The translations under genes were made by a program, and so were the position numbers. From Balanoglossus misakiensis (Eukaryota > Animalia > Hemichordata): DNA of 64,000 nt. Location: assembly GCA_040954595.2 (NCBI GenBank), contig CM082576.2, positions 10,171,129-10,235,128 on the forward strand, in the 5' to 3' direction. Below, in pieces: positions 21,521 to 47,499 of this stretch; position 1 is the first letter of the stretch, and every line of letters begins with the position of its first letter. Below the pieces are notes generated by a model. It was not told where the DNA came from, made no database searches, and worked only from the letters and a program-made list of their open reading frames with translations.

Positions 21521-24012
<2,492 letters not shown>

Positions 24013-26108: not shown

Positions 26109-29100
26109 ATGGCACTCACGGGCAAAGTCGTGCTGATCACCGGAGCGGCAGACGGCATCGGCAGGAGCCTCACCGAGGAGTTTCTCACGATTGGCGCCAA
26201 GGTATAGTACAAATGTGCATGCAATGTCCCGTTTGCAAGATTTCACAATTTTGTGCAACAAATCTTTTACTAAGGATACCTCCACGACTACATTACCCTC
26301 CTTGCTTGCTGCGAGTTCGTAGCCCATCTGTAGGTTGTTGGGAAGAGGGGCTTGGAACTCGCAGCAACCTCCTCGCTTGCTTGCTTGCTTCCATTTTATT
26401 CTACGTTGTAGCCGGCGTGGCATGTCTCATGAACGTCAATTCTTAGAACTGCTGTTGTCTGTCAAAACACGGTCACTCCGTGATCACGAGTACGGTTCAC
26501 GATTTTTCGGGTACGGTTCAATACACTCCACCGTCCACTACAAAATGCCACTGGAAGACATGAACGTAATGCAATTGCTGTATCCGGCCGCGAGTGAAAC
26601 TATAAAATATTGTTCAGGTCTCCTTCCTCATATCCTCATGTCACCTCTTTTTTTTTAGTCACCGCATCATTCCCCGCCCCGCCTACCGATTATAACTTCA
26701 TAAGACTTCTGTCAGTGGACACACTCCCACACAAAGGGCTAAGTGAGAGTATGTCGAGAGTGTTCTGCAATGTCTTCGTTGCCTGCTGCGCGGAGCATTG
26801 TGACCCCAGTGGCACTCTGCCATAGCTGCACAAGGGACATTTGATAACCTGTATTTCTAAAGTTGTTTCTCGTAAATGTTCAGGTTTGCATAGTTGACAT
26901 CAACGAAAATACCGGGCAGGAAGCTGTCAAAAAGCTGACTGAACAATTTGGCGCCGGCAGAGTGTGTTTTTCGAAGTGCGATGTGACGTCCAAGGAACAA
27001 TTGGAAGGTAAGAGACACGGCCGTTTTTACCGATGACTGGCAATTTATGGAAACACAGCCTTTTCAAAACTTCCTATGCGAGAACCAGATATTCAACATT
27101 GCCCCCTTTGGCGATTGCAGGAACAAATTTGGTGTACATGCGCGAAACGAAAGGTGGTGGTCAGGTCACATATTTCAAACACAGTGAGCGAAAATGAAAA
27201 GGGGCGTTTGAAGACTGCAATTATATAACATCTGTGGCTTTGGTTATAGCTCAGTTTTTTGGCTGCGATTAGAAGCTCAAAGTTGTATGTTTGTGCAACC
27301 GATCGTGTGACTACTTCACAAGGACAGGCAGATAGCACGCTGATATATTCAAGTATATTAACATCTGAACTCCATTTTCCCATAGAGTGCAGCAGTCATT
27401 TTGAAGTTTCATTTTTGTAAACTTGTGCCAGGTTATAATATTTCAAAAAGGAAAATCTGCAAGGTGCTTTTGCAGCGAACTTTCCCAGACGGTAGATCTT
27501 ATCGTATTTCAAACACAGTGAGCGAAAATGAAAAGGGGCGTTTGAAGACTGCAATTATATAACATCTGTGGCTTTGGTTATAGCTCAGTTTTTTGGCTGC
27601 GATTAGAAGCTCAAAGTTGTATGTTTGTGCAACCGATCGTGTGACTACTTCACAAGGACAGGCAGATAGCACGCTGATATATTCAAGTATATTAACATCT
27701 GAACTCCATTTTCCCATAGAGTGCAGCAGTCATTTTGAAGTTTCATTTTTGTAAACTTGTGCCAGGTTATAATATTTCAAAAAGGAAAATCTGCAAGGTG
27801 CTTTTGCAGCGAACTTTCCCAGACGGTAGATCTTATCGACTGATAATTTTGAAATCTTATCACTGATGTGTGCACGTAACTGCCTGAAACATTCACCTCC
27901 GCTGCTAAGATTCAAATAAAAGACATGTTTGTAAGTCAACCAGCCTGTCATTTCATGCCAAAGTATTATAATTTAAGAGGCATTCACTCTTTGAAACAAA
28001 TCGCGTGATTTGTGGCCCCATTGTGGTTGCATGTGCCACGTTTGCACGCACGACTCTTTCTCGACATCCATCAATGCATTGACAGTCATGGTTGGGGTAG
28101 GGTGGGGTGGGATGGGGTACCTAGCAGGCACTTATGCAGGTAACCTGAGCATTTTATCATAAAACGTATTATTGTCACATATGACAGCTTTACAGCGGTT
28201 TTTTGTCTGCTTGTATTTCAGCTGCGTTTAAATGCTGCGTCGACACATTTGGGCAGTTGGACGTGGTCTGCAACAATGCTGGTATTTTGAATGAATTCAA
28301 GTGGCAACTTATGTTAGCAATAAACTTGGTAAGGCGGGAATTAAAAATTAATAATATCTAACCAATTGATTGATTTACTGATAGATAGATAGAGAAATTG
28401 ATCGATTAACATCAGTAATACCTTCTTAGTCTAAATTTTAGCAAGATTTTTCTCTGATATAGTGATAATTCTATATTTTGATATTTCTGCATCTACAGAA
28501 TGCCGTCATTGAAGGCACTTATTTGGCCGTGAAGTACATGGGAACCCAAAATGGCGGGAAAGGTGGTGTCGTCGTCAATACGTCATCTGTGGTGGGTGAG
28601 TAACCGTTACCAAGTGGTTAAATGTTTTCGTTCATTTCACCAATTCAAAATCAAGAATTGACTACACATATTTATTTATTCGTTTATTTATTATATATTT
28701 TCCTTTAAGGTCTGATACCACGTGATCTAATTCCTGTATACACTGCAAGTAAACACGGTGTCGTTGGTTTCACAAGGAGTGTTGCTGTAAGTCTTTGGTG
28801 TTGTGAAGGTGCCGGTCACGAGATTTAAGATTCGTCGCTTCGGGGCGCCCTCGAGCGACCAATCTTTCGATGCGGCCGGCACTTTCATGAATTTATCACT
28901 GGGTGTATTTATATGGGCTTTCATGGACCGTCAAGAATGCTAATTTGCACATACGCTCATGTGTTAACACAGTGAGAGAGTAGTACATTCTACCGTGAAT
29001 AATAAACATGCGTGACCCAGTGCCATTCTTTCGTTTTTTTCTTGACCAGTTTGCTTGGTTCGACATCACTATAAAAAATATAGTGTTTTGAATTAATTCT

Positions 29101-29748
29101 CTGAACAGATTGAAGGGACAAAAACACACTGGTAAGCTCAATTTGATTAATCGAACAAAATTATATCGGTTGTCTATGTTGTCTATCGTTTGTACAGTAT
29201 GAACCGATGCTACTGGACAACGGTATACGTGTTGTGGCCATCTGCCCCATGGCAGTGGAGACATCCTTCATGCCGGTGGGAATCGAGAAGGGAATGCGCT
29301 ATACAGAGCAGTTCAAGAAAGGACAAGCAGAAAGAAATCTTCCATACGTTAAGTGAGTGAACGTTTCTTTGTGAATGATACCAATTTCAACTGTTGTTGA
29401 CTATGAATTGCATTTTCTCATTGATAACCAAACTCATAATATCCCAGAACGCCAATCTTTGCGGACAATCTTCATGCAATATCTCAAAACCGGAAGTATT
29501 TACGCTAGAATTGGAAAAGTAAGCCTGTTTTAGTTTAGAATCTTACACTTTTCCTACGTATTTGTTATACCTAATAAATAAATGAATGCAAATTAAATCG
29601 CATATTGTTTGAACGTTATTTCCCTAGATTGAGTGAAGTGACATCTACAATAATAGCCTTGGTCAAGGACAGCAGTTCGAATGGAACAGCCAATGTCATT
29701 GAGCCAGGAAAGGGATTCCGAAACGTTCCACCGCCCAAGTTGGAATAG
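26109..29748 (+). CDS. HPGD: 15-hydroxyprostaglandin dehydrogenase-like classical SDR, 257 aa, 7 exons
   Basis: Exons 26109-26201, 26884-27007, 28222-28328, 28499-28595, 28710-28786, 29198-29352 and 29628-29748 join in frame (774 nt). Motifs: TGAADGIG, acidic VD after beta-2 (NAD preference), CDVT, NNAG, NGGKGGVVVNTSS and catalytic YTASK. AATAAA near 29926. The symbol indicates family, not proven orthology. Confidence 0.9.
27171..27838. repeat. Tandem duplication of 334 bp in HPGD intron 2
   Basis: 27171-27504 and 27505-27838 both run tatttcaaacacagtgagcg...ggtagatcttatcg and appear identical; the ORF track shows the same peptide twice. Confidence 0.95.
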
Positions 29749-32700
29749 ACTCCCCTCACATTTTGCGCACTAGAGGAAGCGATGAACCGACTCAGGGAAC
29801 GCAAACATCTCTCTGTGATTATTGCCAAAATGAAGGCGATTGCGTGGTAGACCATGAAAGTACGGACACTTGTCATTTTATATTACGCTTATCATAATTA
29901 CGTTTTTTCTTCGTATACATAATGAAATAAAAATGACTATCACGTACATCAGTGTGTCCAAGTTCTCTTGACGAACGATCCACTGACTGCGCATGCGCTG
30001 TGCTGACACGATGTGTGACCGAACGTGACCAGGACATTTGTTGTTCTGGAATAGTAGACGTTTATAGACCAGAATTATGACTAAAATAATTTTAAATACT
30101 AGTAAATAACGTCTAATTAAAAATTGTGTTTAAAAGTACTAGTTTGACAAGAGCGTAACTTATGCATTCCGAGTTAAATTATTATTATTCAGTGGACCAC
30201 AAATAATATAAAAGACCCATCGACGTATATATAGTTTCAGAGAATTGCGGAAATGCGCTAATAGTCGCTATTAAACTGTTTCGATTTTTTTCATCCGAAA
30301 TAAGAAGAACAGGGTATAGAAGGGGTTTACAGTCAAGTGGATATTTAATGAAAAGTCACCGTTTTGTGCGATTGAAAGAGCTCAACACCACACCTAGTTT
30401 TCAAGGCAACTCCGTTCTAATCACGAAAGACCAGGCTAATTGTTTTCTCTTTAGAAGCCAGAGAGTGCGTCACCGGCGTGCCCGCTTATTCGTCGCATAT
30501 ACACGCGGCACTGTCGGGGGGAATAACGGCGAGTCTATCTGTACTGTGGACGGTGCAACTTGCGCGGCACACTGATTCGCAGACGGCCTGCGGGGAGAAG
30601 TGCGCTACGATTTTTGGGCGGCAAGGGTCAAATGTTCAAATCTGCAATCCGGCATGAATGTAGACAATGGTGGCGTAAGACAGGTAAGGGCTCTATACTG
30701 GTGTAAGTTGTAGAACCAGGTGCAAAGATAGATATGTGTGAAAGGCCAAGTGAGTCTCTTTGCTATACTTTGGCATTATGGCCAGATAAGTTCACCGTCA
30801 CCTCTTCATTAGTTCATTACCAGGTCATCGAAGTTTAAAATATTAGCCGAGAGCCTGCTAAACTGTGTTGAGGGTAACGTAGTAGCGTTGATGTTGGCCG
30901 AGAAAAGTGAAATGGGGAATTTTTTCGGCCGACCCAATTTCATTAACTTGGAGAGTGACAGCTGTGTAGGCTCTATCGTCATTCTCCGGTTTATTTGACA
31001 TTGCCCATGATGCTATACAGGTAAACGTGTGGGATAACAAAGAGGTATTGAGTGCCGGCCATCTAATAACCAAGGAAAGACGTATTGTCACAAATACTTG
31101 TGCCAAAGTTCAAGTTTAAAACATCGTATAGTACACTTTTTATCACAACAGTTATTCGAAAAATCTGACCATAATACAAAAATGTAGCTCCCTTGTCCAG
31201 TTGCGGGAGTTTTCTCGTATATACGTACGCGCTTTTTATGTGCGATGTAATTTCTGCAAACAAAGTTTTAAGTAAGAAAAGAAAACAACCGATTTAGCAA
31301 AGAAATTCGTTCAGGCAACGAAGGTGACTGTTTATAAAAACGGAGCAAAAATGACGACTAACTTTTGTCACTCCATTCCAAAGGTAAATAAAGGTTTCTT
31401 TGTCGTTCCAACCTCCTGCAGCTATTCTTGTCATTACGGTGACTTGATTACAATTGTATTTTTCCGCTCGTTTTTTTTTTCTAAATATTTCTTTGCTGTG
31501 CCCACTTCTTCGTATTACTGTAGCTGTTCCATGCGACAGCTTATCAAACGACGCGAAGCATAAGGGGGGACCGTGGTTGACTGCGGAGCTAAGAAACTGC
31601 GACGTCGCGACTCAAATTTAGAAGTCGCCTTAGGACTTTCCTCGGGTTGGGTGTTCATTGAGCATTGTATGCGGGTGTCTACGTGCGAGATCGTGTAACT
31701 AAGAAAGTATCCGGGGCGACTGTTTTTCGCTACTCCCCGACCCCCATCTGGTCGCCTCCTAACCCGGTCTATCGTTACCCCAACGGCATTGTTCAGTGCA
31801 GTATCAAATCACAACATCGAGCCGAACTTTAAAAACGAGGCTAGTATTAGCTTTCAACGGGGTGAGGCAAAACATGGCAGACAGTCGACAGTTTCACCGA
31901 GAGACGCTAAAAAGGACGAAGACATTTACAAGGCTGTAGGTGGGTTCATCATTTTGGTCCAGGGACATCACGAATCAGTATGATATCTATATTGAGTTTA
32001 TTTCATTGTCCGGATCCGCAAACGTCCAACTTCATCTTGAAGCCAACTGTGGATTAGTCGGTTATGATGGCAGAATGTTGTTCCAATTTCTGCTCAAGAA
32101 TACGAAATGCGAAATTAGCGTGTTACGTTGACTTCTAACGCATCATTTTCAGTAAGCCAGGTAGAATGCCGAATAACACGTGAACGAAAACTCGTTTTAG
32201 AAAAAAATGACGTCGATAAAAAGAAACATGTCGCAAATTAGGAGGGCGATTGTTCTGTAACTTGTGGTAATTAATTCTTGTAAAGTCCATCGTTTGAGTT
32301 TGCAAAGTTGGACTCGCAGTAAGCTAAGACGTATGCACTTACATAAATGGTTGTTGAATAATACAGCCACGTTGTTGACACTATTTTAAAGATAACTTGA
32401 AAATAATCAACATTTTTGAAAAGTTCCTGACAAACCAGTGTTCGCCATTCTATCCTGGTGAGATCAAAGTTGAAACACCGACACAGCACAGAGTGCATGT
32501 TTATTTTCCGTGGAACGACATTTTTCGACGACATTTAAACAATTATCGAAGTAATTGATACTCCGTTTCTCAAGCCAACAATATAACACGCTTGGTGAGA
32601 TGCGAACGGCCCCTTTTATTCGAACATGGCGAGTTGTGGGTTAGGAATATTGGAATGTTTCAACAACAGTATATCATATTGCTCGGCATTTTTTGTGGTT

Positions 32701-33913
32701 ACGGGTACACGTAAAACTCGTAGATGCGGCTTTAAAATTGCTTCCATTTGGAACGGAAACAGACTGAATTTGAGATTCGAAACATTTCCGAGACTTCCAT
32801 CAGGAATTTCCCTCTCTTACTTTGGAAAGCAATGTCGACGACCGACGCCAATGCCCGGATGTACTGACGATAAGATAACCTTGCTCTTTATCACGATTGT
32901 CAGTACGCATTTCATTCACCGATTGTTATAAATGTTGGAAAGTAGATTGCGAATGTCTTTGAAGAAGGAAAGTCACGTATATTCTCCCAGACAGATGTAT
33001 GAGTACGTATGGCAGACTGTCACACCGCAATTTGGGGATTAAAATTACCAACTTCACAGATTTTGGCTTTTTTTCGACCAGTTTTGAATATTTTTGTTCT
33101 GTGTACCAACCATGGTTTTTTGTTCAGTCCTCTGGAGGAGGTTTGTATGCCAATTCTTTACCCTTTCAATATAACCCATGTGAGTATAATCGACATTGTT
33201 ATTGTTAAAATTGTGTTCAAGTATACGGACTTCAATGCATTTGGCAACAACAACAATGGTCGGTACCGTCACATACGCATGATTTGTTGACAAGCAGAAA
33301 ATAGTTTGTTGAGATACTGTTGGGAGAACATGAAAATGGAATTGATACACGGAACAAATATTACTGAAAAAAATAACCAGATATCTGTTCGCTTGGATGG
33401 TATCAATGACGCAAAAGGCAAGACTTACTTTAACGACCGTTCAATCGCGCCACTGTTTTCTATACAAGGAGTTACAATTGATGCGAAGCATATTGCCAGC
33501 GGTGAACCGTTTGAGAAACAGATAGGTGTGTAATGTAGATAAGTAACGGATAGTCACCGTGCAGTGAATGTCGTAAACGAATGAACGAACATTTGAAACT
33601 TACTGGGGGACTTTTCACTTTTCAACACCACTTCAACATTGATACTTAAGAAAACGCATTAGCTTTGCCTTGGTGCATGGGGATGTGTATATTTTGTGAC
33701 TAAGTATAGTGGTTGTGATGTCACAAAATTGTCCATGGGTGTTAAAGGGGTGTAGTCATTACGTTGATTTTAAGAATTCACGCAAGAAGTTTCTTTGCAT
33801 ATTCGAAATCAAAATAACCCCAATAATATGTTTATCTATCACTTAGGATTGTGGATGACCATGCCACCCCCTGATGCGGTCACGTGGTAACAGTGCTGCC
33901 CCGACTTGTTGCC

Positions 33914-36900
33914 ATGGTGACCGATCTGGTGTACAACAATACAGAGACGCCTCTGGATGCACCGGATGCAACATTTCGTATTATCTCGTCGGAACTTCTC
34001 CGCGTTGTCATGTGGACCGTTGCCTTGGTAGCCGTCCTTGGTCACGCCGTCATTCTCTTCACGAGGCTATATCATCGGAAAGAGACGCCATCTTTTGCGG
34101 TGCTTTTCACATCACTGTCAGTTGTACACGTTCTCATCGCCTGTTACATTGGAATACTTGCATCAATGGATTCGTATAGCAGTGCTGTCACGGGTACGAC
34201 AAAACTGGAGTGGACCTTCCGTCCCGTATGTAAATTTATTGGATTTTTAGGCGCATTCTCCACTCAGATGTCGCTATGGATTCTGCTGTCTGTGTCTGTT
34301 ACGACATATTCACAACAACTTTTCCCACGGAGACTCAAAATAAAAAAGAATCACACGCTTGCTTTTGGTGCCATTCTCACAGCTGAAGTTTGTTTTGTAG
34401 CAGTGGTTGCAGCATTACCTTTGATCCCTTACTTCGAGTCTGCACTTCAAGCAGACGACAATGTATTTTGTCTCAGGATATTCTTCCCGCCTAATTCATC
34501 GTGGGACTACAGCGCCTTCGTGACGTCACTCACCGGCATTTGGATCGTCTTCGTCTTCGTGTGTTTTTGTTTAGCCAGCTGTCAGTTGCGCAGGCGGAAA
34601 CGAACAAGTGTACACGCCATCCCAAACGAACTCATGAACACCAAAGACGGCAGTACCAGAGTAAGGAGACTGGCCTACGTTTTGCTGTTGCACGTTGTCT
34701 GCTGGACACCTGCGATGGTGGCCATATTTTGCATTTATGCCAATGTACCAGTCACCGTCGAGATCGGAGAGTGGTTGGTCGGTGTGGTTATACCTTTAAG
34801 TTCGGCACTCCATCCGATTCTATACTTTGTGCAAGCAGTCAGAAGTCAGGATGAGCTAATAGAGCTATTTACATCATTCAGGACAAAGGGTAGGTCGGTG
34901 AAAGCGCAATTTTAGCACAGAGTCCAATATTGACATTCGTGTTTCCTGATCTTGGCTCCAGAACGATTTGGACCACCACATTTTGATATCGTTTGTTTAT
35001 CGTTCAATAGAAAAGCCTAATTTTTGTCAACATTTCATGTTACATGATGATTATTACAATTGTTCAAGAACATATTGCTAAAATACTTCATGTATGGGCA
35101 TGACAATTAATATTGGCATACTTCATCGACAGCTCCACCAGAGAAAGCACCCATAATGCAAGTCAGCAGAAATGCGCCAGTCAGTGTGACCTGGCTAGAA
35201 TCACAAATTACATCAGCCGAGGAGAGTAAAGAGGTTAGATTTGTGGGAGCTCTTGATTCAACAGCTCGTAATATTTTGTCACATTTGCGAAAAGGTGTCG
35301 TCTGGGAATTTTTACCGTTCTGAGAAACTTAAGATTAGGCTAACAGTATTTCGTCTACTTCCAAAAATGTACATATTCCAGGTGGGGCAATAAAATCCGC
35401 ATCGCTTCTTGGATCAGTGCTGTATTTTATGAAAGGTTCAATTCTACTTAGTTTGATATTTGTCCATGGTTTGTTTTCAGAGTAAAGCCCTCGTTGAGTG
35501 GAGCGAAAATGATGAAACCACTCCACTTGGAAGCCTCAAATTATTCCACCCGTCCAGGGCCAAAATGTGGCAAAAAGAAATCAAGATTCTTCTGAGATTA
35601 TCGACTCACGGTCGCCATGTTAATATCTCTGAATATATGTGGCATTCAGACAGCAGTCACACGACGATCGCAAACTGCCCGCCAAATATCTGGCGCCATC
35701 TTGAAAATCATAACAGGCAAGTAAATCGTACTCAAACTCACTGATAACAAAATGGCCAGGGTACAATTTCACTGGCGATTTTTCTTTGCCCAGACTTCTT
35801 ATCTACACAGCATTCATGAAAATCAGCAATTTTTCAAAATGGGTAAATATTTGTTGTACGATGTTATCTGATTCGTCAACCAGCGCAAACAGGAACATGT
35901 CCGAATCGTGTCCTTTTCTGCACGATGCAAATGTGGCCAAAAGTCAGGCCGACTACAAATCCCAGCACGTTTACCCATTCATGTGTAATTGATGATTGTT
36001 CGTACTTGGGATGGACAGAGTTGATATCCTGGGGGATCTGGAAGATTTGTTGAAAAAAGGACATAAATATTGCCACAGTAAATAGAAAAGACAAACCAAA
36101 AGGATGCTGGATTTTATTTTCTACTATCAGTCTACCTGGTATCTGGTGGTCATTGTATATTTTTTCAGCATGCAAGTCAACGATATATCCAAAGAAGATC
36201 ACCTGGGCTATCTGTTTTTCCTGAGCCGCACTTGTTTCATATCCTCTGTTCATATCATACTCTTCAACCCCAATTAGAATCGTTCTTCATTTGTAAATTT
36301 TGCACAGATATATCTGCTGTACCTTCTACAAACATGGACCACTCAGACGCTTCTTCATCAACCACAAAAGTAGCCTATCAGATGCACATATCCATTCAAT
36401 AGCCAATCAGATCGTTGACGGGCTTCGATATTTACATAAAGCGAGTATTGTACACAACAACGTCACCTCAACGAGTGTTTTGATTGGTGGAACCACCCAG
36501 GTAAATTAACATTTTTATCGTACAACAGTTTTAATTAATAATAATAACAGCTGGAACACGGTAGAGTTGTAATCCAACATGCAAGTAGACATGTAAATAC
36601 CTCACGACGTAATTTTTGGTCCGTATCATAAATTGTGTTATGGAAAAATTCACACACGATGATGTAAGAACCCATACTGAATTGCGACGATTCAACTGAC
36701 ATTTAGCATTCAGCACACCTGAATGAGGGAATATGAATCAAGCGTCACATACCCTTCTCTTGTTTTATGCAGACAATGGTCCTGCAGGCGGTTCTGTCGG
36801 ATTTCACGAAGGCCATTGACGTTTCCGATGCAAACGATGGTCGACCCGCCGATTCCTCCACGCGCGCGGCCGGTTCTGACAGAACTCCGAAGTTCGCCGG

Positions 36901-39900
36901 GAGATATCGCTTCTGTGTCGACATAAGATCTTTCGCGCTGGTCTTATTAGAAATGCTGTCGTGGTTGCACCAGAACACCGTTTCATCGGCACCAGCCAGG
37001 AGTTCCGCACAGAAAAAATCATACAACCAAATCGCAGTTTATCATGTTTCATCAAGAGGAGACGCGGTTTACGATACAAAGCAAACTCTGTCGGGGAGAA
37101 CAGCCGACAGTCGCCAACCACAGAAAGTGAACGGCATCAATCCGATAGCACCCATCTCGATCTCGGAGCCCCCGTCCAAGCAAACTGGTCCGTACCACCA
37201 CAACCCACATATAGGGAAGGCCAATCACAACCACGTGAGATCAACCCCAAACCTCATCCAGTTCACGGAAAAGCCAAACGTGACAAACCCTGCCATCCTC
37301 ACTCGACCAACCCCAGCGCAGCCACCGAGAGACAGCAAAACTACCGTCGCGACGCCGCCGGACAAAAGCACCATCCTGAATGTCCGACAGGCGCCTCTGG
37401 AGAATCAAGTGGACACCACGATGGACGACCACGATTCGCCGCCGAAGTTCCGACATTCGCTGTGGAGTCCGTTTACCGCTCCGCCGCCGAAGAAGGGAAA
37501 CGCCTTCTTTGTTACAGAATCTTCCTCGTATAAGGGTACGGGGAAGAGTTCTACATTGAAACACGTTCACCACTCGAACGACATCAACGCAATTAAACCG
37601 CCATCTCAGGGAATCTCAGGCGATGCAAGACCAAGCATTCAACGAGGACAGTTAAAGGCTTGGCCCAGTGACAATTCGTGCTACTACGAGGACATAACGG
37701 AGCGCGAATACGAAGAAGTGTTCGTGAAAGCCGCGGATGCAAAATTGATATCTGGCCAAACATCAGACACGAGTTACGAATCTCACACAAGACAAAATGC
37801 TCAAAATACGTTCCTGAATTCCAGCTCAAAATCAGACGTGCATTATAATTCTCACATGAGAAATCCAAACCAAATCGCGAACAGTAGAGTTTCGCACAAG
37901 CATGCCAAATCATTACATCCTCCACGGGGCTTGACTGGAGTTAATGTTTATGATTCTCGAGAGACAGACCATTGCAATATTTCCAGTAAAAATGTTTCAA
38001 ATCTCCGTCCGCGCACAGGCAACGTCGCGAAATCGAGGCCTTTGGGTGCGGGACTGGGGTCGGACAACAGGGCACCCCAAGAGACATCGATTCGCAAATC
38101 TTTGGAGCAACACGGTCAGCCCAAACCGAATCAAAACTTTCAAAAGAGTGTCTCTCGCACTCGGGAGGATGTGAAAGAACAGAGGTCGTACAACAAATCG
38201 CACGTTTCGCGCGCAACGGCTGCACCGATTCCGATTCCAGTCACCACTGATTCAACTATAGTTACACTTATGGGTTCGGGAGAACTGGCCCCTGGCTATT
38301 CCGTGCCACAGGCCCAAGGCAGGCCTGCTAACAACTCCCAGAAAGTGAATACACCTGCGGTGGGTTACTCGTCACGTAATGCTAACGAGAACGTTGGCAG
38401 GACAGACGCGGACACCGGGAAAATCTTCCCAGGGGCTTATGAAAGTGTATTGAGCAACAGCAATCAACAGCGACCAAAAAAGTTCCCCCAAACGGTAAGA
38501 ACGCGCAGTGCGGCCAAATCGCCAAGTTCACAAAGACCTGGAAATCGTGACAGAAAGAAGCCGATGCTACATCATGTACATAGACACACGGGGAACGGTA
38601 AGCGCATTAATTTGGCGGACAAGATGCAGAAACTTGCAGCCACCAAGAAGCAAAACCGCAAGAGAGCGCCCCCAGCGTCGCCTTCGCATTTTGAGAACAC
38701 GACTGGATCTAGTACCACGATGTATTCGGTCAGTTCAGTTTCGGATGACCCTGATCAGGCAAACCACGAACTTACTTCCGCAGTTACGACCGAAAACTCA
38801 TCAACGGCGCCCGTTTCCATGGCAGCATCTGGTACCAAAACAACGCCATCAGGAGGAATACCGAAGGAATGTATTTCGACGCAAGTGCACTGTCACCACG
38901 TACCATCAAAGCATTCAAACAAAACCCCGGCTGTTAAAGGGGAAACGTCTAAATTTTTAAAACTGTCAGTTCAAGAAGATGATCGCAAAGAACGGAGGAT
39001 TTGGTCTGAAAAAGACCCTAATACTATTGCGGAAACAAAACAAAGTAGGTTGGTTGAAAATTCCGCTGGAGTGGCGCACGCAAATGGAACTATGAAGCAG
39101 TTGTCTTCAGACAAAGGAAGCGCATTTGGTATGAAACTCGCCGGTGGACAAAATCGACCGAAAAATGCAAACGATTCTCCTCACACCCGCAGTAAAGATA
39201 CAATTCAGAAAGCACCTCGCGAAATCTCTCCAAAAACGCCAAGAATCGCGAAAACCGCCAATAATGTTTCCAGTAGAATCATTGTTTTCGAGAGATACGC
39301 TGAAAAATCGACCGCGAAAGCCATAGTCGGAAATCCGTCATCAAATACTGGATACCGAGTGCAAAGTGGCGACCCAACCGGTCAGTCGGCCGGACCGTTG
39401 GGAGGGAGCCAATCACAGCAGCGCACGGGACCATCTGCCAAACATCACGACCAATTACACAGTGAGTCGGGGACGTCATTAAAACTTGCCAACCAATCAC
39501 AACAGCGGGGGCGACCACAGCAGGCAGATGTCAGCGACGAGGACATAAATCTGTCGGATAACGAAGCTTTATCTGGAATCCATCAGCAACACGTGGAGTA
39601 CCATCGGGAATTGAAGATGCTCTTTCCTTGGTTGGTTTCAGAGCATTTATTTCCATGTAGCCAGGATAAGCTGGTCGAGATTCTGAAGCCACTTGCCATG
39701 GAATCTGAAACCGGAAATCTTCGACAAAGTGTGAGTAGCAGTATTTGTACCTTCCTGTTGTTTACGTATTTGGTTGTTTACAATCAATCAATAATTAATT
39801 AATTAATCAATCAATCAATAATTAACATTGAATGCAGTCAACATTGTTATGGTTGAAAATTGTCATTCTCTGGCAGTATCAGTATCAGCAGAAGCACAGT

Positions 39901-40096
39901 CCCTCAAGAAAGAGGGACTGCGGCAGAAGACAATCAACTTTGAAGACAGCTCCCTCGGTGGTGACTTTTTACGTATAACTTTGTTTTTCCTCAGCTCCTG
40001 AAGATCGTTGTGCACTGTTGGACGAGCCGACCAGCGCCGACAGCTGATCAAGTGAAGGCAATGCTGACGGATTCTCTCCCTGTCACAGAAATATGA
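33914..40096 (+). CDS. Predicted class A 7TM receptor (RXFP/GRL101-like TM domain) fused to a C-terminal pseudokinase, ~1521 aa
   Basis: Exons 33914-34889 (7TM; start at gccATGG), 35133-35233, 35481-35716 (LK, WQKEIKIL, HVNI), 36308-36500 (QIVDGLRYLH..IVHNNV), 36773-39730 (SDFT, DIRSFALVLLEML, long insert) and 39995-40096 (HCWTSRP). Phases 1,0,2,0,0 all match; one donor is GC. The N-terminus is uncertain. Confidence 0.75.
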
Positions 40097-43135: not shown

Positions 43136-46100
43136 TCAGAACCTGAAGAGGCCATTACCATTACTACCCGCACCCCCTCCCTGACCCCCACCCATGCCCA
43201 TACCCCCACCACCCATAGCCCCACCCATACCCCCAGCATGAGGCAAGAACGGGTGGTGCATTGGCGGCAACCCAGCTGCAGCCATGGCGCCCTGGTTTGG
43301 ATTGATGTTTACCATGGCCACGTCGGCCGGTTGCGGTGGCATGTCGGATACACTGGGCACAGCAGAGGCCGGTTGAGATGGCGCTGGTGGCTCCTCTTGG
43401 CTGGCACCGTTCAGTTGGGCCGGACACTCAAAGTGAACGCAGTGGAACACCTGCAAGAGATGAGAACAACAGGATTATTATTTTCTAACAGAACAGAATA
43501 GGAAACGCATATTCCATATCACACCAGTGCAGCTATCTCACGCCCTACTTTCTGTTTTTACTTTGTAAATCGCTCACCTCATTGGCAGTATTGTGAGTTC
43601 CAACAATCTTTATGTATGTCATTGGTCTCTTGTCAAAGAAGACTGTCTGCCAAGATCTGCAATCAAAGCACAAGTGGTTTTAAAAAATGTGTAAATTCAA
43701 GAGATATATCTCATGTATGTAAATACTGGCATGCTAGTGATCAGATACAAGCAGCAAGGGTAGTGTTGGAATCCTTATATCACCGAGACTGATCAACGGA
43801 ACTGCGTCACTTACTTGCACTGGTCCTTCGTTTTGTCAGCCACACGAGTCCAGTTGTGCTGGTCACATGACACCTCAATGGAATAGCTGTAACTTCTGTC
43901 ATCACAGTCCCATAACAAGAGCCTGTCAGGCCAAAACAAAATGACCTTGTCAGTTTTTGGGACAATTCAAACTATATATCCAACATTCCCATGTGGACCA
44001 CAGGAAAGATTGCGTCTGTCTTTAAGATTTTGTCTTAAGATTGGGTGTACATGAGTTGAGGGATTGGGGTAAGAATGGGGAAACACACACCTCATGGATC
44101 CTATGATGAATGGCTGTGCAAGTTGTACAACAATCGCTCCACTGCCCAGCTGGTGGCACGTATAACCAGAGTCCCAGTCGTAATTCTTGGTGTCGCCATT
44201 CAGCAGAGCATTGCGACTTCTACTTACACCTTCTATCACACACGCACTGTTCTGGATTGTCGCTACATTCTCGTTCGGTACTGGAGAACAAAAACATCAA
44301 CAACTGTAACTAAATTTCAATTCCATTATACAAGCACTGAGGTTTTTTTACTTTTGTCACAAGAGCAACTATTGAGTGACAAGTACAGTTTTATAGTAAT
44401 CCGACAAGAATATACAACAAGTATTCAGCAATATGTTTCAACAAAAATCTTATCAATAGATACTAATAGTCTATAAACTGAATCTGAAGCCAAATGTATT
44501 GCTAAATAAAATAGACATATATACATGATGGTGTGCATACATGTATGCACATAATCACACGTACATGCATACACACATTGGAATACTTACCAATAATACC
44601 AGAATCAAGCACAAATGGTTTGTTGGTACACATACATTCAAATGACACCAAGTGAAACACTTTGTTCACAGTGTTGTGTACGCCAACTATTCTGATGTAC
44701 CTGTCAATATGAAATGCCAAAAACAGAACTTCAACAATCAATACAGAAGCTGGACCTCTCTACATTTTATGTGACGGAATCTGATGAGAAGCTCTCACTG
44801 GTTTCTTAGATCACTGTGGTTGTAGAACAGTTCAGAAAATGACCCTTAACTGGTGCAATAGTAATACTACTACAAGAAATGGATGGCGCCTTCTGGGTTA
44901 CCGTACCTGACAACCCTCTGTGCAAAGTGCAATGTTTGCCATGATCTGCACAGATAGTTAGAATGATCTATCACTCTGATCCAGTCTTGTTCATCCATGG
45001 ACACTTCAATGTAGTAAGAATATGACCTGAAAAATAGTTAGAAATATGCAGAGAGAGGGTGACTCAGCCAGACACATCAATAAACTACATGTATATGCAC
45101 ATGAAATGGGAGAAATAACTTGTAGCATCATCCTTTTCACAGATGCATAGTAAATGTGGTTATGTTTAGATACATTTAAAAGTTTCCCATATTGTACTGA
45201 TTATTCAATTTTGTATTTAAAGGTACACAGTCACCTATAATTCACATATGTCCCAAAATGGGTGGCCCTCTCTTTTGCACGTGTGCCACCCACTGAAAAT
45301 CTAGATCTCAATTTGCCATGGTAACTGTAGTTAAATTTCCACAGGTGACCTGATATACCTTTAATGTCATAACCAAATATCCTCAGTTGTATCCACTGAT
45401 GCTACAAGTAACGCACCTCATATCTCTGTCCCACAGCAACATTTTGATTGTATTGATTATGCAAGGCTTCCCTAGCTTAATGACAATTCCACCATTTCCA
45501 GCAGGTTCTTCGATGGGATGCCTGGTAAAGCCTCTGTCCAGGTCATAGTTGGTGGTGTCACCATCCAGCAGAGCCGCTTTCATCTCACCCCGGATCACCT
45601 GACCGCCGTGTCTCATACATGCGACATTTTCTTCAGGTGCTGAAAGTGGCAGACAGAATTTTTTTTTAATTTGAGTTCCTGTACAGTTGTGAAAATGATT
45701 GTGAAACAAACATCTTGGTATGGTTTTTTCTAGTCTGGTAGCTTCTTTCACATTTATGTTTTATGATACAAAGTTACATATACATGTATGATAAATTCAT
45801 CACTTTTCTTTCAGTTTGTTTTTAAAAATATACATTTGGTCATTGATTGGTACCAGTGAAGGGCTTTACCATGTGTTCAAAACAAAGAGCATCTAATAGT
45901 AAATAAAACACTTTCAAACAGTGTTTGATTTTTTATACACACCAAGGTAACCTCTGTAGCACAGCTGCATGTCACGACTCTCCTCCCTCAGCTTGATGGC
46001 ATCCAAGATGGCGTCGGGCGACACCAGGTTGGTCGGTCTGACGGTGTTCAACAAATCTTGCAGACTCATCAATGGAAGTCTGACTGCAGTGACAATGTGG

Positions 46101-47499
46101 GTTGGATCCACCTCTGAGTTGGTCTTGCTCCAATCCAACACTGCGTTGAAGATGTCAATCTCAGTGCCGCAGAACGAGTCCCGGGACATTACATCTCTAA
46201 GTGCTGCCTGGAGATGGAAAATTTCAACTCAGATAAGGATATGTTCTACAGTTGTTATTAAGCAAGTGCACCTTCTACATTTTACACCACTGGTCCTGAG
46301 ACACATTGTTGGAGGGTAAATCTGTCACCTTTCAACTAGATAAGATCATGATTCCTACATGTACTTTAAACTCATAAGCCTACATGTATGTCATAATTTC
46401 TCTATAAAACAATCGGCCCTTGACCTGTACCATATCTAAAACATAAAACCACCATTATTTGTCTCATTTCATTATTATTATTAGACTTCAATGTCATCAT
46501 TTCCCCATACCTTTTGGGTCACAAAATTTTAAGTGAAGCACCACCTCAGTAGGAAAAACGGCTCAGCACAAAACTCACCTCCGATAACGCTAAAAACGAT
46601 TCACTCTTCATGACCTCGCTGGCGTTATTATCCATAAAAGTGAAACAGGTCTCCTTGAGCGAACGCAGCTGATACAGACTTGCTACATCATAGATCAGAC
46701 ACACATTACCAATATTCAAAGTGGCCCTCAGATAGTCAGATATGGAGAGTTCTAAATCGACAAATCCGTAACGATGGGCAAGTCCAAGGATGTCCAACAG
46801 GGAGTCGTCTTTCAGGTCTTGTAAATTCATTTTGCCGGTGTAAATGTACTTAAGTAACGCATGGAAAGCCAGCGAGGTCGTATCTTTTAATTCAATCTCT
46901 GTGCAGTCTGGTCTTGATTCTCGCATCCCGCCAAACAGCAGAGCTCTGAAATAAGATGCAAAAAGTTTATGTTACATGCACGTTTGCTAATGTCTTCTAG
47001 ATGCACATACTCAGTGCTAGTAACTTGGCACAATTCACAGCACATCAAAATACCACCCCCTCCAAAAACAAACTACTAACATACATCTACATTCAGTCAC
47101 ATACATGGAAAGTACGGCCTACAGAATGTTGGCTGATATTCCCATTTTTTTTCTTTTAGAGACACTATACATGGAATATCCACAGATACATTTTGTACTA
47201 AAACCATGTCATACAAGATATAGTGACCATGGTTTCTTCCCAAACAGATCATAAAGGCAGAGGTATTCGATCCAAGTCATCAAATCTCAGAGGTACAATG
47301 ATCGAGAATTTTACCTGAAATATTCGCATCTTGCTGCCAGTATGACGCGGTGTGCATGGAATCGGGTGGTCTCGACGACGAACGTGACATCGCTGTATTC
47401 CTGGTTGAGGAACAAATTTCCAATTTGTTCCGACAGATGGTGGACGTGCTCCACCTCTCCAACCGGAGTGTGCGGTCTCAGTAGATGACTGTCACACAT
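43136..47499 (-). CDS. BTBD9: BTB/POZ domain-containing protein 9 (BTB, BACK, two discoidin-like domains), 10 coding exons
   Basis: Exons 47499-47315, 46945-46579, 46207-45943, 45639-45417, 45026-44907, 44700-44591, 44280-44091, 43922-43815, 43656-43578 and 43450-43136, all GT-AG and phase-compatible. Diagnostic peptides: AHRVILAARCEYFRALL, LLDGDTTNYDLDRGFTRHPI, IEGVSRSRNALLNGDTKNYDWDSGYTCHQLGSG, VFHCVHFECP. Confidence 0.96.
45221..45360. mobile_element. Short TTAA-flanked MITE (Kolobok/piggyBac-like termini) in a BTBD9 intron
   Basis: ttaa|aggtacacagtcacct ... aggtgacctgatatacct|ttaa: imperfect inverted termini with TTAA on both sides. Confidence 0.6.

Follow-up and report, generated by a model that had tools for sequence, protein, structure and literature searches.

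The window analyzed here, a 64,000-nucleotide stretch of Balanoglossus misakiensis DNA (contig CM082576.2, assembly GCA_040954595.2), contains at 33914-40096 on the plus strand a predicted gene in which a seven-transmembrane (7TM) domain, of the type found in G-protein-coupled receptors with leucine-rich repeats (LGRs), is followed in the same reading frame by a kinase fold. This in-frame fusion is very likely a real gene, and its product is probably a seven-pass pseudokinase scaffold uncoupled from G proteins, in which the LGR-derived 7TM domain anchors a split, likely inactive, kinase fold. What is distinctive is the combination of a lost ectodomain, lost G-protein switches and a split pseudokinase. 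An initial annotation of the same DNA had proposed a receptor wired directly to its own intracellular scaffold, an idea that the analysis supports.

By predicted splicing the six exons join into one uninterrupted frame of 1521 codons with zero internal stops; the introns (243-591 nt) have GC contents of 0.35-0.39 and the exons of 0.43-0.53. The start ATG of exon 1 stands in the context GCCATGG, with an in-frame stop 13 codons 5' of it and a weak acceptor alone in between. The five phase-compatible junctions of the initial annotation do give this open frame, but four introns only are of GT-AG type, intron 3, which lies inside the kinase domain, needing a GC-AG pair with a consensus donor (AG/GCAAGT, at 35717). 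Among three frame-preserving donors for intron 3 the GC donor scored best against all four homologues tested; those at 35638 and 35680, which also leave the frame open, gave worse homologue scores and were rejected, and skipping of exon 2 was ruled out, as it breaks the frame. The Pfam profile 7tm_1 matches exon 1 (E 2e-8, 34.4 bits) and PK_Tyr_Ser-Thr matches exon 4 (E 9e-10), both above the curated cut-offs, so that the profile check suggested in the initial annotation returns both domains. The features of the gene are as follows.

33914-34889, plus strand: exon 1, with the start ATG, an N-terminus of ~26 residues, seven TM helices and helix 8, of LGR-type class A (Pfam, structure, frame).
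34890-35132, plus strand: intron 1, the 7TM-to-kinase junction, 243 nt, GT-AG, phase 1, holding the read-through TAG at 34913-34915 (predicted splicing).
35133-35233, plus strand: exon 2 (101 nt), with the linker, Met334 (35156), β1 and a degenerate glycine-rich loop (β1 alignment with Ptychodera, Acanthaster and Diadema).
35481-35716, plus strand: exon 3, with β2, the β3 Lys (35538), the helix C Glu (35577) and β4-β5, ending at the GC donor (59% identity to Ptychodera).
36308-36500, plus strand: exon 4, with the hinge, helices D and E, a catalytic loop reading HNN for HRD (36453) and β7 (PK_Tyr_Ser-Thr; 69% identity to Ptychodera).
36773-36970, plus strand: start of exon 5, with β8, DFT for DFG (36800), a variable segment lacking an APE motif and helix F (homologue comparison).
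36971-39583, plus strand: insert in the kinase C-lobe, 871 residues, Ser/Pro/Thr-rich and likely disordered (26% identity to Ptychodera; composition).
39584-39730, plus strand: end of exon 5 (whole exon 36773-39730), where the displaced C-terminal kinase helices begin (homologues, co-folding).
39995-40096, plus strand: exon 6, with the final kinase helices (subdomain XI-like), a T-x-I C-terminus, which we take to be a PDZ class I-like motif, and the stop (70% identity to Ptychodera).

Ahead of exon 1, at 33847-33913, a probable acceptor of the 5' untranslated region (33846/33847) is followed by an 11-codon upstream open reading frame (33855-33890), which could dampen translation of the gene.

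The search for relatives longer than exon 1 gave a single protein, XP_070579022.1 of Ptychodera flava (1460 residues), which is colinear end to end with the window gene, every exon being matched in order (exon 2 weakly, E 0.10), and has the same final residues. Besides the values by exon given above, identity in the 7TM domain is about 44-45%, and conservation is higher in the kinase than in the 7TM domain, relative both to Ptychodera (62% vs about 45%) and to Acanthaster (37% vs 27%). With the Ptychodera kinase region as query, Saccoglossus LOC102809902 (P0003) was found. A HMMER search, which gave 1362 matches at E up to 0.001 and whose best 150 are the basis of all LGR counts below, added Acanthaster LOC110979617, Diadema antillarum and two European Nucleotide Archive (ENA) records containing a 7TM domain alone; Diadema setosum was reached via the D. 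antillarum cluster. The range of the family, as RefSeq gene models, is two hemichordate species (the acorn worms Ptychodera and Saccoglossus) and three echinoderm species (the starfish Acanthaster and both Diadema sea urchins), i.e. the domain pair does recur in the first two groups in which the initial annotation had suggested looking. When a five-sequence family alignment served as query, the sole matches were the Ptychodera protein and a single nematode LGR; since members of its own alignment were missed, this search gives no information on taxonomic range, and the stripped form may have chordate, protostome or cnidarian orthologues. The proposed tree of the 7TM domain, built with FastTree from 146 rows (the 144 of the 150 HMMER matches that span the domain, the window gene and Saccoglossus), places the six family rows in one clade with support of 100, which divides into three hemichordate-like rows and three rows including the echinoderms, with the window gene beside Ptychodera.

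The donor after 34889 (G/GTAGGT) and the 101-nt exon, on which the initial annotation had based the link between the two halves, are both present, as is the TAG at 34913-34915, where read-through of exon 1 would stop. It could be that predictors alone have joined two neighboring genes, i.e. a 7TM gene without introns, ending at 34915, and a pseudokinase gene starting from Met334. The read-through does end neatly past helix 8, an AATAAA is present in intron 2 (35389), and the ENA records (P0007 and P0154) are 7TM-only; furthermore, the claim that the kinase part has no separate start does not hold, an in-frame ATG (35156) being present ahead of β1. Met334 is, however, not conserved, with no Met at the aligned place in Ptychodera, and the gap between exons 1 and 2 is merely 243 nt, with a clean GT-AG pair in the correct phase. 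The gene models of Ptychodera, Acanthaster and both Diadema show the same join, and in Acanthaster the sole difference between isoforms X1 and X2 is four residues immediately past helix 8, which points to an alternative splice site at the 7TM-kinase junction. P0007 and P0154 diverge from each other just past helix 8, where divergence would be expected of unspliced gene calls. A pair of separate genes thus seems very improbable.

The 7TM domain is, as judged from its sequence, LGR-derived and homologous to those of the LGRs, including RXFP1/2, GRL101, TSHR, LHCGR, FSHR and LGR4. The best matches of exon 1 in the Protein Data Bank (PDB) are TSHR (E 7e-15) and RXFP1 (E 2e-13), with LHCGR, FSHR and LGR4 also among the closest solved structures; RXFP1 ranks first (70.7 bits) when the family profile is compared with the PDB. 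The AlphaFold model of the Ptychodera protein has a seven-helix fold predicted with high confidence, for which the top Foldseek matches are LGRs, and with the two-domain Ptychodera model the Foldseek matches listed are GPCRs alone. The relaxin-receptor/LGR affinity suggested at the outset is therefore borne out by PDB, profile and fold matches, and the TM motifs quoted with it are present in the sequence.

Compared with the LGRs, the window gene lacks the leucine-rich repeat (LRR)/LDLa ectodomain, the hinge Cys, E/DRY, D2.50 and N7.49, and adds a cytoplasmic part of ~1200 residues that bears the kinase fold. Exon 1 has H at 2.50 (34127), TTY at 3.49-3.51 (34301-34309), CWTP (34700) and HPILY (34811). 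R3.50 occurs in none of six family rows vs 138 of 140 other LGR matches, D2.50 in none of six vs 131 of 140, and N7.49 in none of five vs 137 of 140. The hinge Cys motif before TM1, present in 105 of the 140, is likewise absent from all six family rows. The N-terminus preceding the TM1 Trp is 16-29 residues long in the Ptychodera, Acanthaster and Diadema models, and 78 in Saccoglossus; an upstream ectodomain exon was sought in the window, and the plus-strand frames of 29800-33914 contain no LRR or LDLa pattern. Both disulfide Cys are retained in the window gene (34229, 34469), as in all six family rows, P7.50 is present in four of five rows and Y7.53 in five of five, and the helix prolines are largely kept. 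Retention of the fold with loss of R3.50, D2.50 and N7.49 would, on established class A mechanics, argue against G-protein coupling.

Signaling in the absence of a canonical DRY motif is known for some receptors. The fusion might, then, be real and yet still a ligand-gated GPCR with atypical coupling to a G protein or arrestin, its pseudokinase tail tuning trafficking or desensitization. The confident seven-helix prediction and its match to LGR structures are as such a receptor would have them, as is the retention, for the most part, of the disulfide, W6.48, P6.50, P7.50 and Y7.53. Such coupling is nevertheless unlikely, in that R3.50, D/E3.49, D2.50 and N7.49, each present in at least 131 of 140 relatives, are lost in every scorable family row, and both the ligand-sensing ectodomain and the hinge Cys are missing.

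The part following the 7TM domain does have a kinase fold, as first claimed, but not the contiguous run of subdomains II-XI after the 101-nt exon that had been described: β1 is already in exon 2, ~20 residues past helix 8, and an 871-residue gap follows helix F. The bilobed fold is supported by Pfam, by the secondary structure of the Ptychodera model (β1-5, helix C and helices E and F) and by the predicted docking of the terminal piece, and in profile comparison the nearest kinases to the family are RAF, LIMK, Eph and EGFR, i.e. TKL/TK members. The assignment as a kinase-fold domain stands, given the PK_Tyr_Ser-Thr match, with the correction that the catalytic Asp is absent. The catalytic loop reads HNN in the window gene and Ptychodera, HND in Saccoglossus, HGL in Acanthaster and HTR in both Diadema species, so that the HRD Asp is missing in five of six species and present in Saccoglossus only. 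The DFG position reads DFT, DFN, DFT, NFS and NFT, the G being lost in all and the D in both echinoderm genera, and the family has neither a GxGxxG glycine-rich loop nor an APE motif. Such variation of catalytic-site residues is the pattern expected of pseudokinases, and the kinase fold of the window gene is likely inactive.

A divergent but active enzyme, and with it a true seven-pass receptor kinase, would be most plausible in Saccoglossus, which retains the Lys and the Glu together with the DFG Asp, and is the sole member with both the catalytic-loop Asp and Asn. Across the full-length members the β3 Lys is kept in four of five and the helix C Glu in five of five, and the kinase is the best-conserved part of the protein. 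An active kinase nonetheless appears improbable in view of the losses just described, which affect the catalytic Asp, both DFG positions, the glycine-rich loop and the APE motif.

In the window gene the Ser/Pro/Thr-rich stretch after helix F is followed by ~80 conserved residues, and in the four full-length models, too, the terminal kinase piece is displaced, by inserts of 559-887 residues. The three hemichordate sequences have short islands of the insert in common, at 37241-37270 and 38600-38668 among others. When the two Ptychodera kinase pieces were co-folded, the interface score ipSAE was 0.80 vs 0.30 for the best of three controls; at least 76% of contacts were shared between runs, the partner had a predicted local distance difference test (pLDDT) score of at least 63, and the contacts lay on helices E and F. 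In benchmarks on microbial pairs, 51 of 78 solved and 2 of 108 mismatched ones reach the ipSAE mark; for eukaryotic pairs the figures are 39 of 65 and 2 of 126, though halves of a known fold can pass through resemblance to solved kinases. The modeling supports, but does not establish, a docking back of the terminal helices that would close the kinase fold about a very long loop. As a lead only, the N-terminal part of the Ptychodera protein falls in generic kinase clusters of the ESM Atlas.

Kinase-derived tails are also found on other LGRs. Of the best 150 HMMER matches, 87 other LGRs have tails of at least 60 residues; a profile of five family kinase domains scores at least 10 bits with eight of these (3.3 bits with the best reversed tail), and after iteration 14 have a kinase-derived remnant (reversed tails at most 3.6 bits). 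They include Ptychodera XP_070533608.1, Glandiceps XP_077989864.1, the mollusc Haliotis XP_071080748.1 and a Holothuria protein (rows P0088, P0028, P0105, P0145, P0111 and nine more), and Pfam independently matches a kinase in three of them. The alignment of these tails matches the window gene family with a profile-profile probability of 96.6% (E 5e-10), and a profile of 13 tails finds kinases exclusively among the 60 PDB matches listed. The test is partly circular, since the tails were picked by a kinase-derived profile. For the Haliotis tail a fold is predicted with pLDDT 86 and matches a kinase C-lobe (best Z 12.0, root-mean-square deviation 3.2, 111 aligned); Foldseek gave nothing for it at E up to 0.001, though the matches listed are kinase-fold entries, and in the ESM Atlas, again a lead only, it falls mainly in unnamed clusters with some kinase sets.

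These GRL101-like receptors resemble the window gene in having an LGR 7TM domain followed by a degenerate kinase fold, and differ from it in that ectodomains and G-protein switches are kept (R3.50 in 13 of 14) and in that most have a mere C-lobe remnant of ~120 residues. The kinase tails of the LGRs and of the window gene family likely share a single origin, and the family appears to be a reduced offshoot of an older lineage of LGR-pseudokinases. Given kinase tails on many ordinary GRL101-type LGRs, the 7TM-kinase fusion is probably not unique to the window gene. Among the rows searched, P0004, P0005, P0099 and P0008 have at least two LGR 7TM domains per chain and are probably merged tandem genes.

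Receptor pseudokinases and kinase-homology domains are known from PTK7, ROR, RYK, EphB6 and the receptor guanylyl cyclases. These are likewise membrane receptors with a cytoplasmic kinase fold that lacks catalytic residues and would have a scaffold or allosteric role but, unlike the window gene product, they are single-pass, with large ectodomains and compact kinase domains. GPCR-kinase fusions ("GPCR-bigrams") have, as is predicted for the window gene, a 7TM domain and then a protein-kinase fold in one chain. The view in the initial annotation that such fusions are known mainly from oomycetes and amoebozoans, to which the available text of one paper confines GPCR-TKL (PMC5784254), has to be widened to choanoflagellates and sponges: the accessible parts of a 2025 survey report GPCR-TKL/K from the acanthoecid choanoflagellates, and GPCR-TK from sponges as well as choanoflagellates, and "not in other metazoan lineages", with none of these fusions functionally characterized and the acanthoecid 7TM domains clustering with no other GPCRs (PMC12716839). 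The window family differs from the bigrams in its rhodopsin-class LGR 7TM domain and in a degenerate kinase split by an insert. That its 7TM domain is a rhodopsin-class LGR suggests an origin likely independent of the protist and sponge fusions, and the architecture is likely a variation on the GPCR-kinase theme with an LGR origin of its own. In the portions seen of PMC8286064, PMC4079206, PMC11521371, PMC2396169 and PMC11863921 an LGR kinase tail is not mentioned, Roch and Sherwood leaving the LGR tail aside there as poorly conserved (PMC4079206). No description of an LGR-kinase fusion was found in the literature covered, outside which lie supplements and subscription papers that may list the gene.

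In the pseudokinase scaffold that we favor, the 7TM bundle would anchor the protein and take its input, from a putative small ligand or by pairing with an ectodomain-bearing LGR, and the signal would pass via helix 8 to the nearby kinase N-lobe. The terminal helices are predicted to turn back onto helices E and F, thereby closing the C-lobe, with the insert hanging out as a loop, such that the pseudokinase surface, the loop islands and, in hemichordates, the PDZ-like end may recruit putative partners at the membrane. The family would have arisen from a GRL101/type-C LGR that already bore a kinase tail and then, before the divergence of hemichordates and echinoderms, shed its ectodomain and ceased to couple to G proteins. 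A more extended scenario is offered tentatively, as one we would hold to be somewhat short of an even chance: a kinase was fused to a type-C LGR in early animals, the fusion has been hidden as the "poorly conserved tail" of GRL101, and one ambulacrarian copy, having lost ectodomain and switches, became a seven-pass receptor pseudokinase whose fold closes around a docking loop of 600-900 residues and which relays signals of partner LGRs without G proteins.

Several observations weigh against parts of this interpretation. The residues retained in Saccoglossus imply that kinase inactivity is not uniform across the family. The insert motifs, conserved among hemichordates, are hardly conserved at all with echinoderms, and confidence in the kinase half of the AlphaFold Ptychodera model is low (10-residue block means of about 28-76). 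The orthologues are automated gene models throughout, that of D. antillarum being partial; those of Saccoglossus LOC102809902 lack TM5-TM7 and the exon-2 region, perhaps through an assembly gap, and so do not test the junction. In the FastTree tree the family has a long branch and an unresolved sister and is not placed beside the kinase-tailed LGRs, which are dispersed over the tree (eight changes) and none of which is recovered as its sister.

The family would provide a conserved bilaterian example of a GPCR-kinase fusion derived from a rhodopsin-class hormone receptor, in hemichordates and echinoderms, where the 2025 survey, in its accessible parts, records protists and sponges and no other animals (PMC12716839). 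It offers natural tests of signaling by a 7TM bundle without G proteins and of kinase fold assembly across a ~870-residue insert, and draws attention to a kinase-derived tail that has been overlooked on orphan GRL101-type receptors. Knock-down and expression work is feasible in sea urchins and starfish, making these questions directly testable.

With respect to the neighborhood, the upstream gene (28185-29748, plus strand) comprises exons of a short-chain dehydrogenase with a weak adh_short match (E 6e-4), presumably 15-hydroxyprostaglandin dehydrogenase-like. Downstream, a convergent gene (43800-46230, minus strand) has exons with BACK and F5/8-type C domains and is assumed to be BTBD9-like. 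Farther upstream, at 21521-22099 on the minus strand, is an open frame rich in Pro, Gln and Tyr with a long four-base microsatellite ahead of it.

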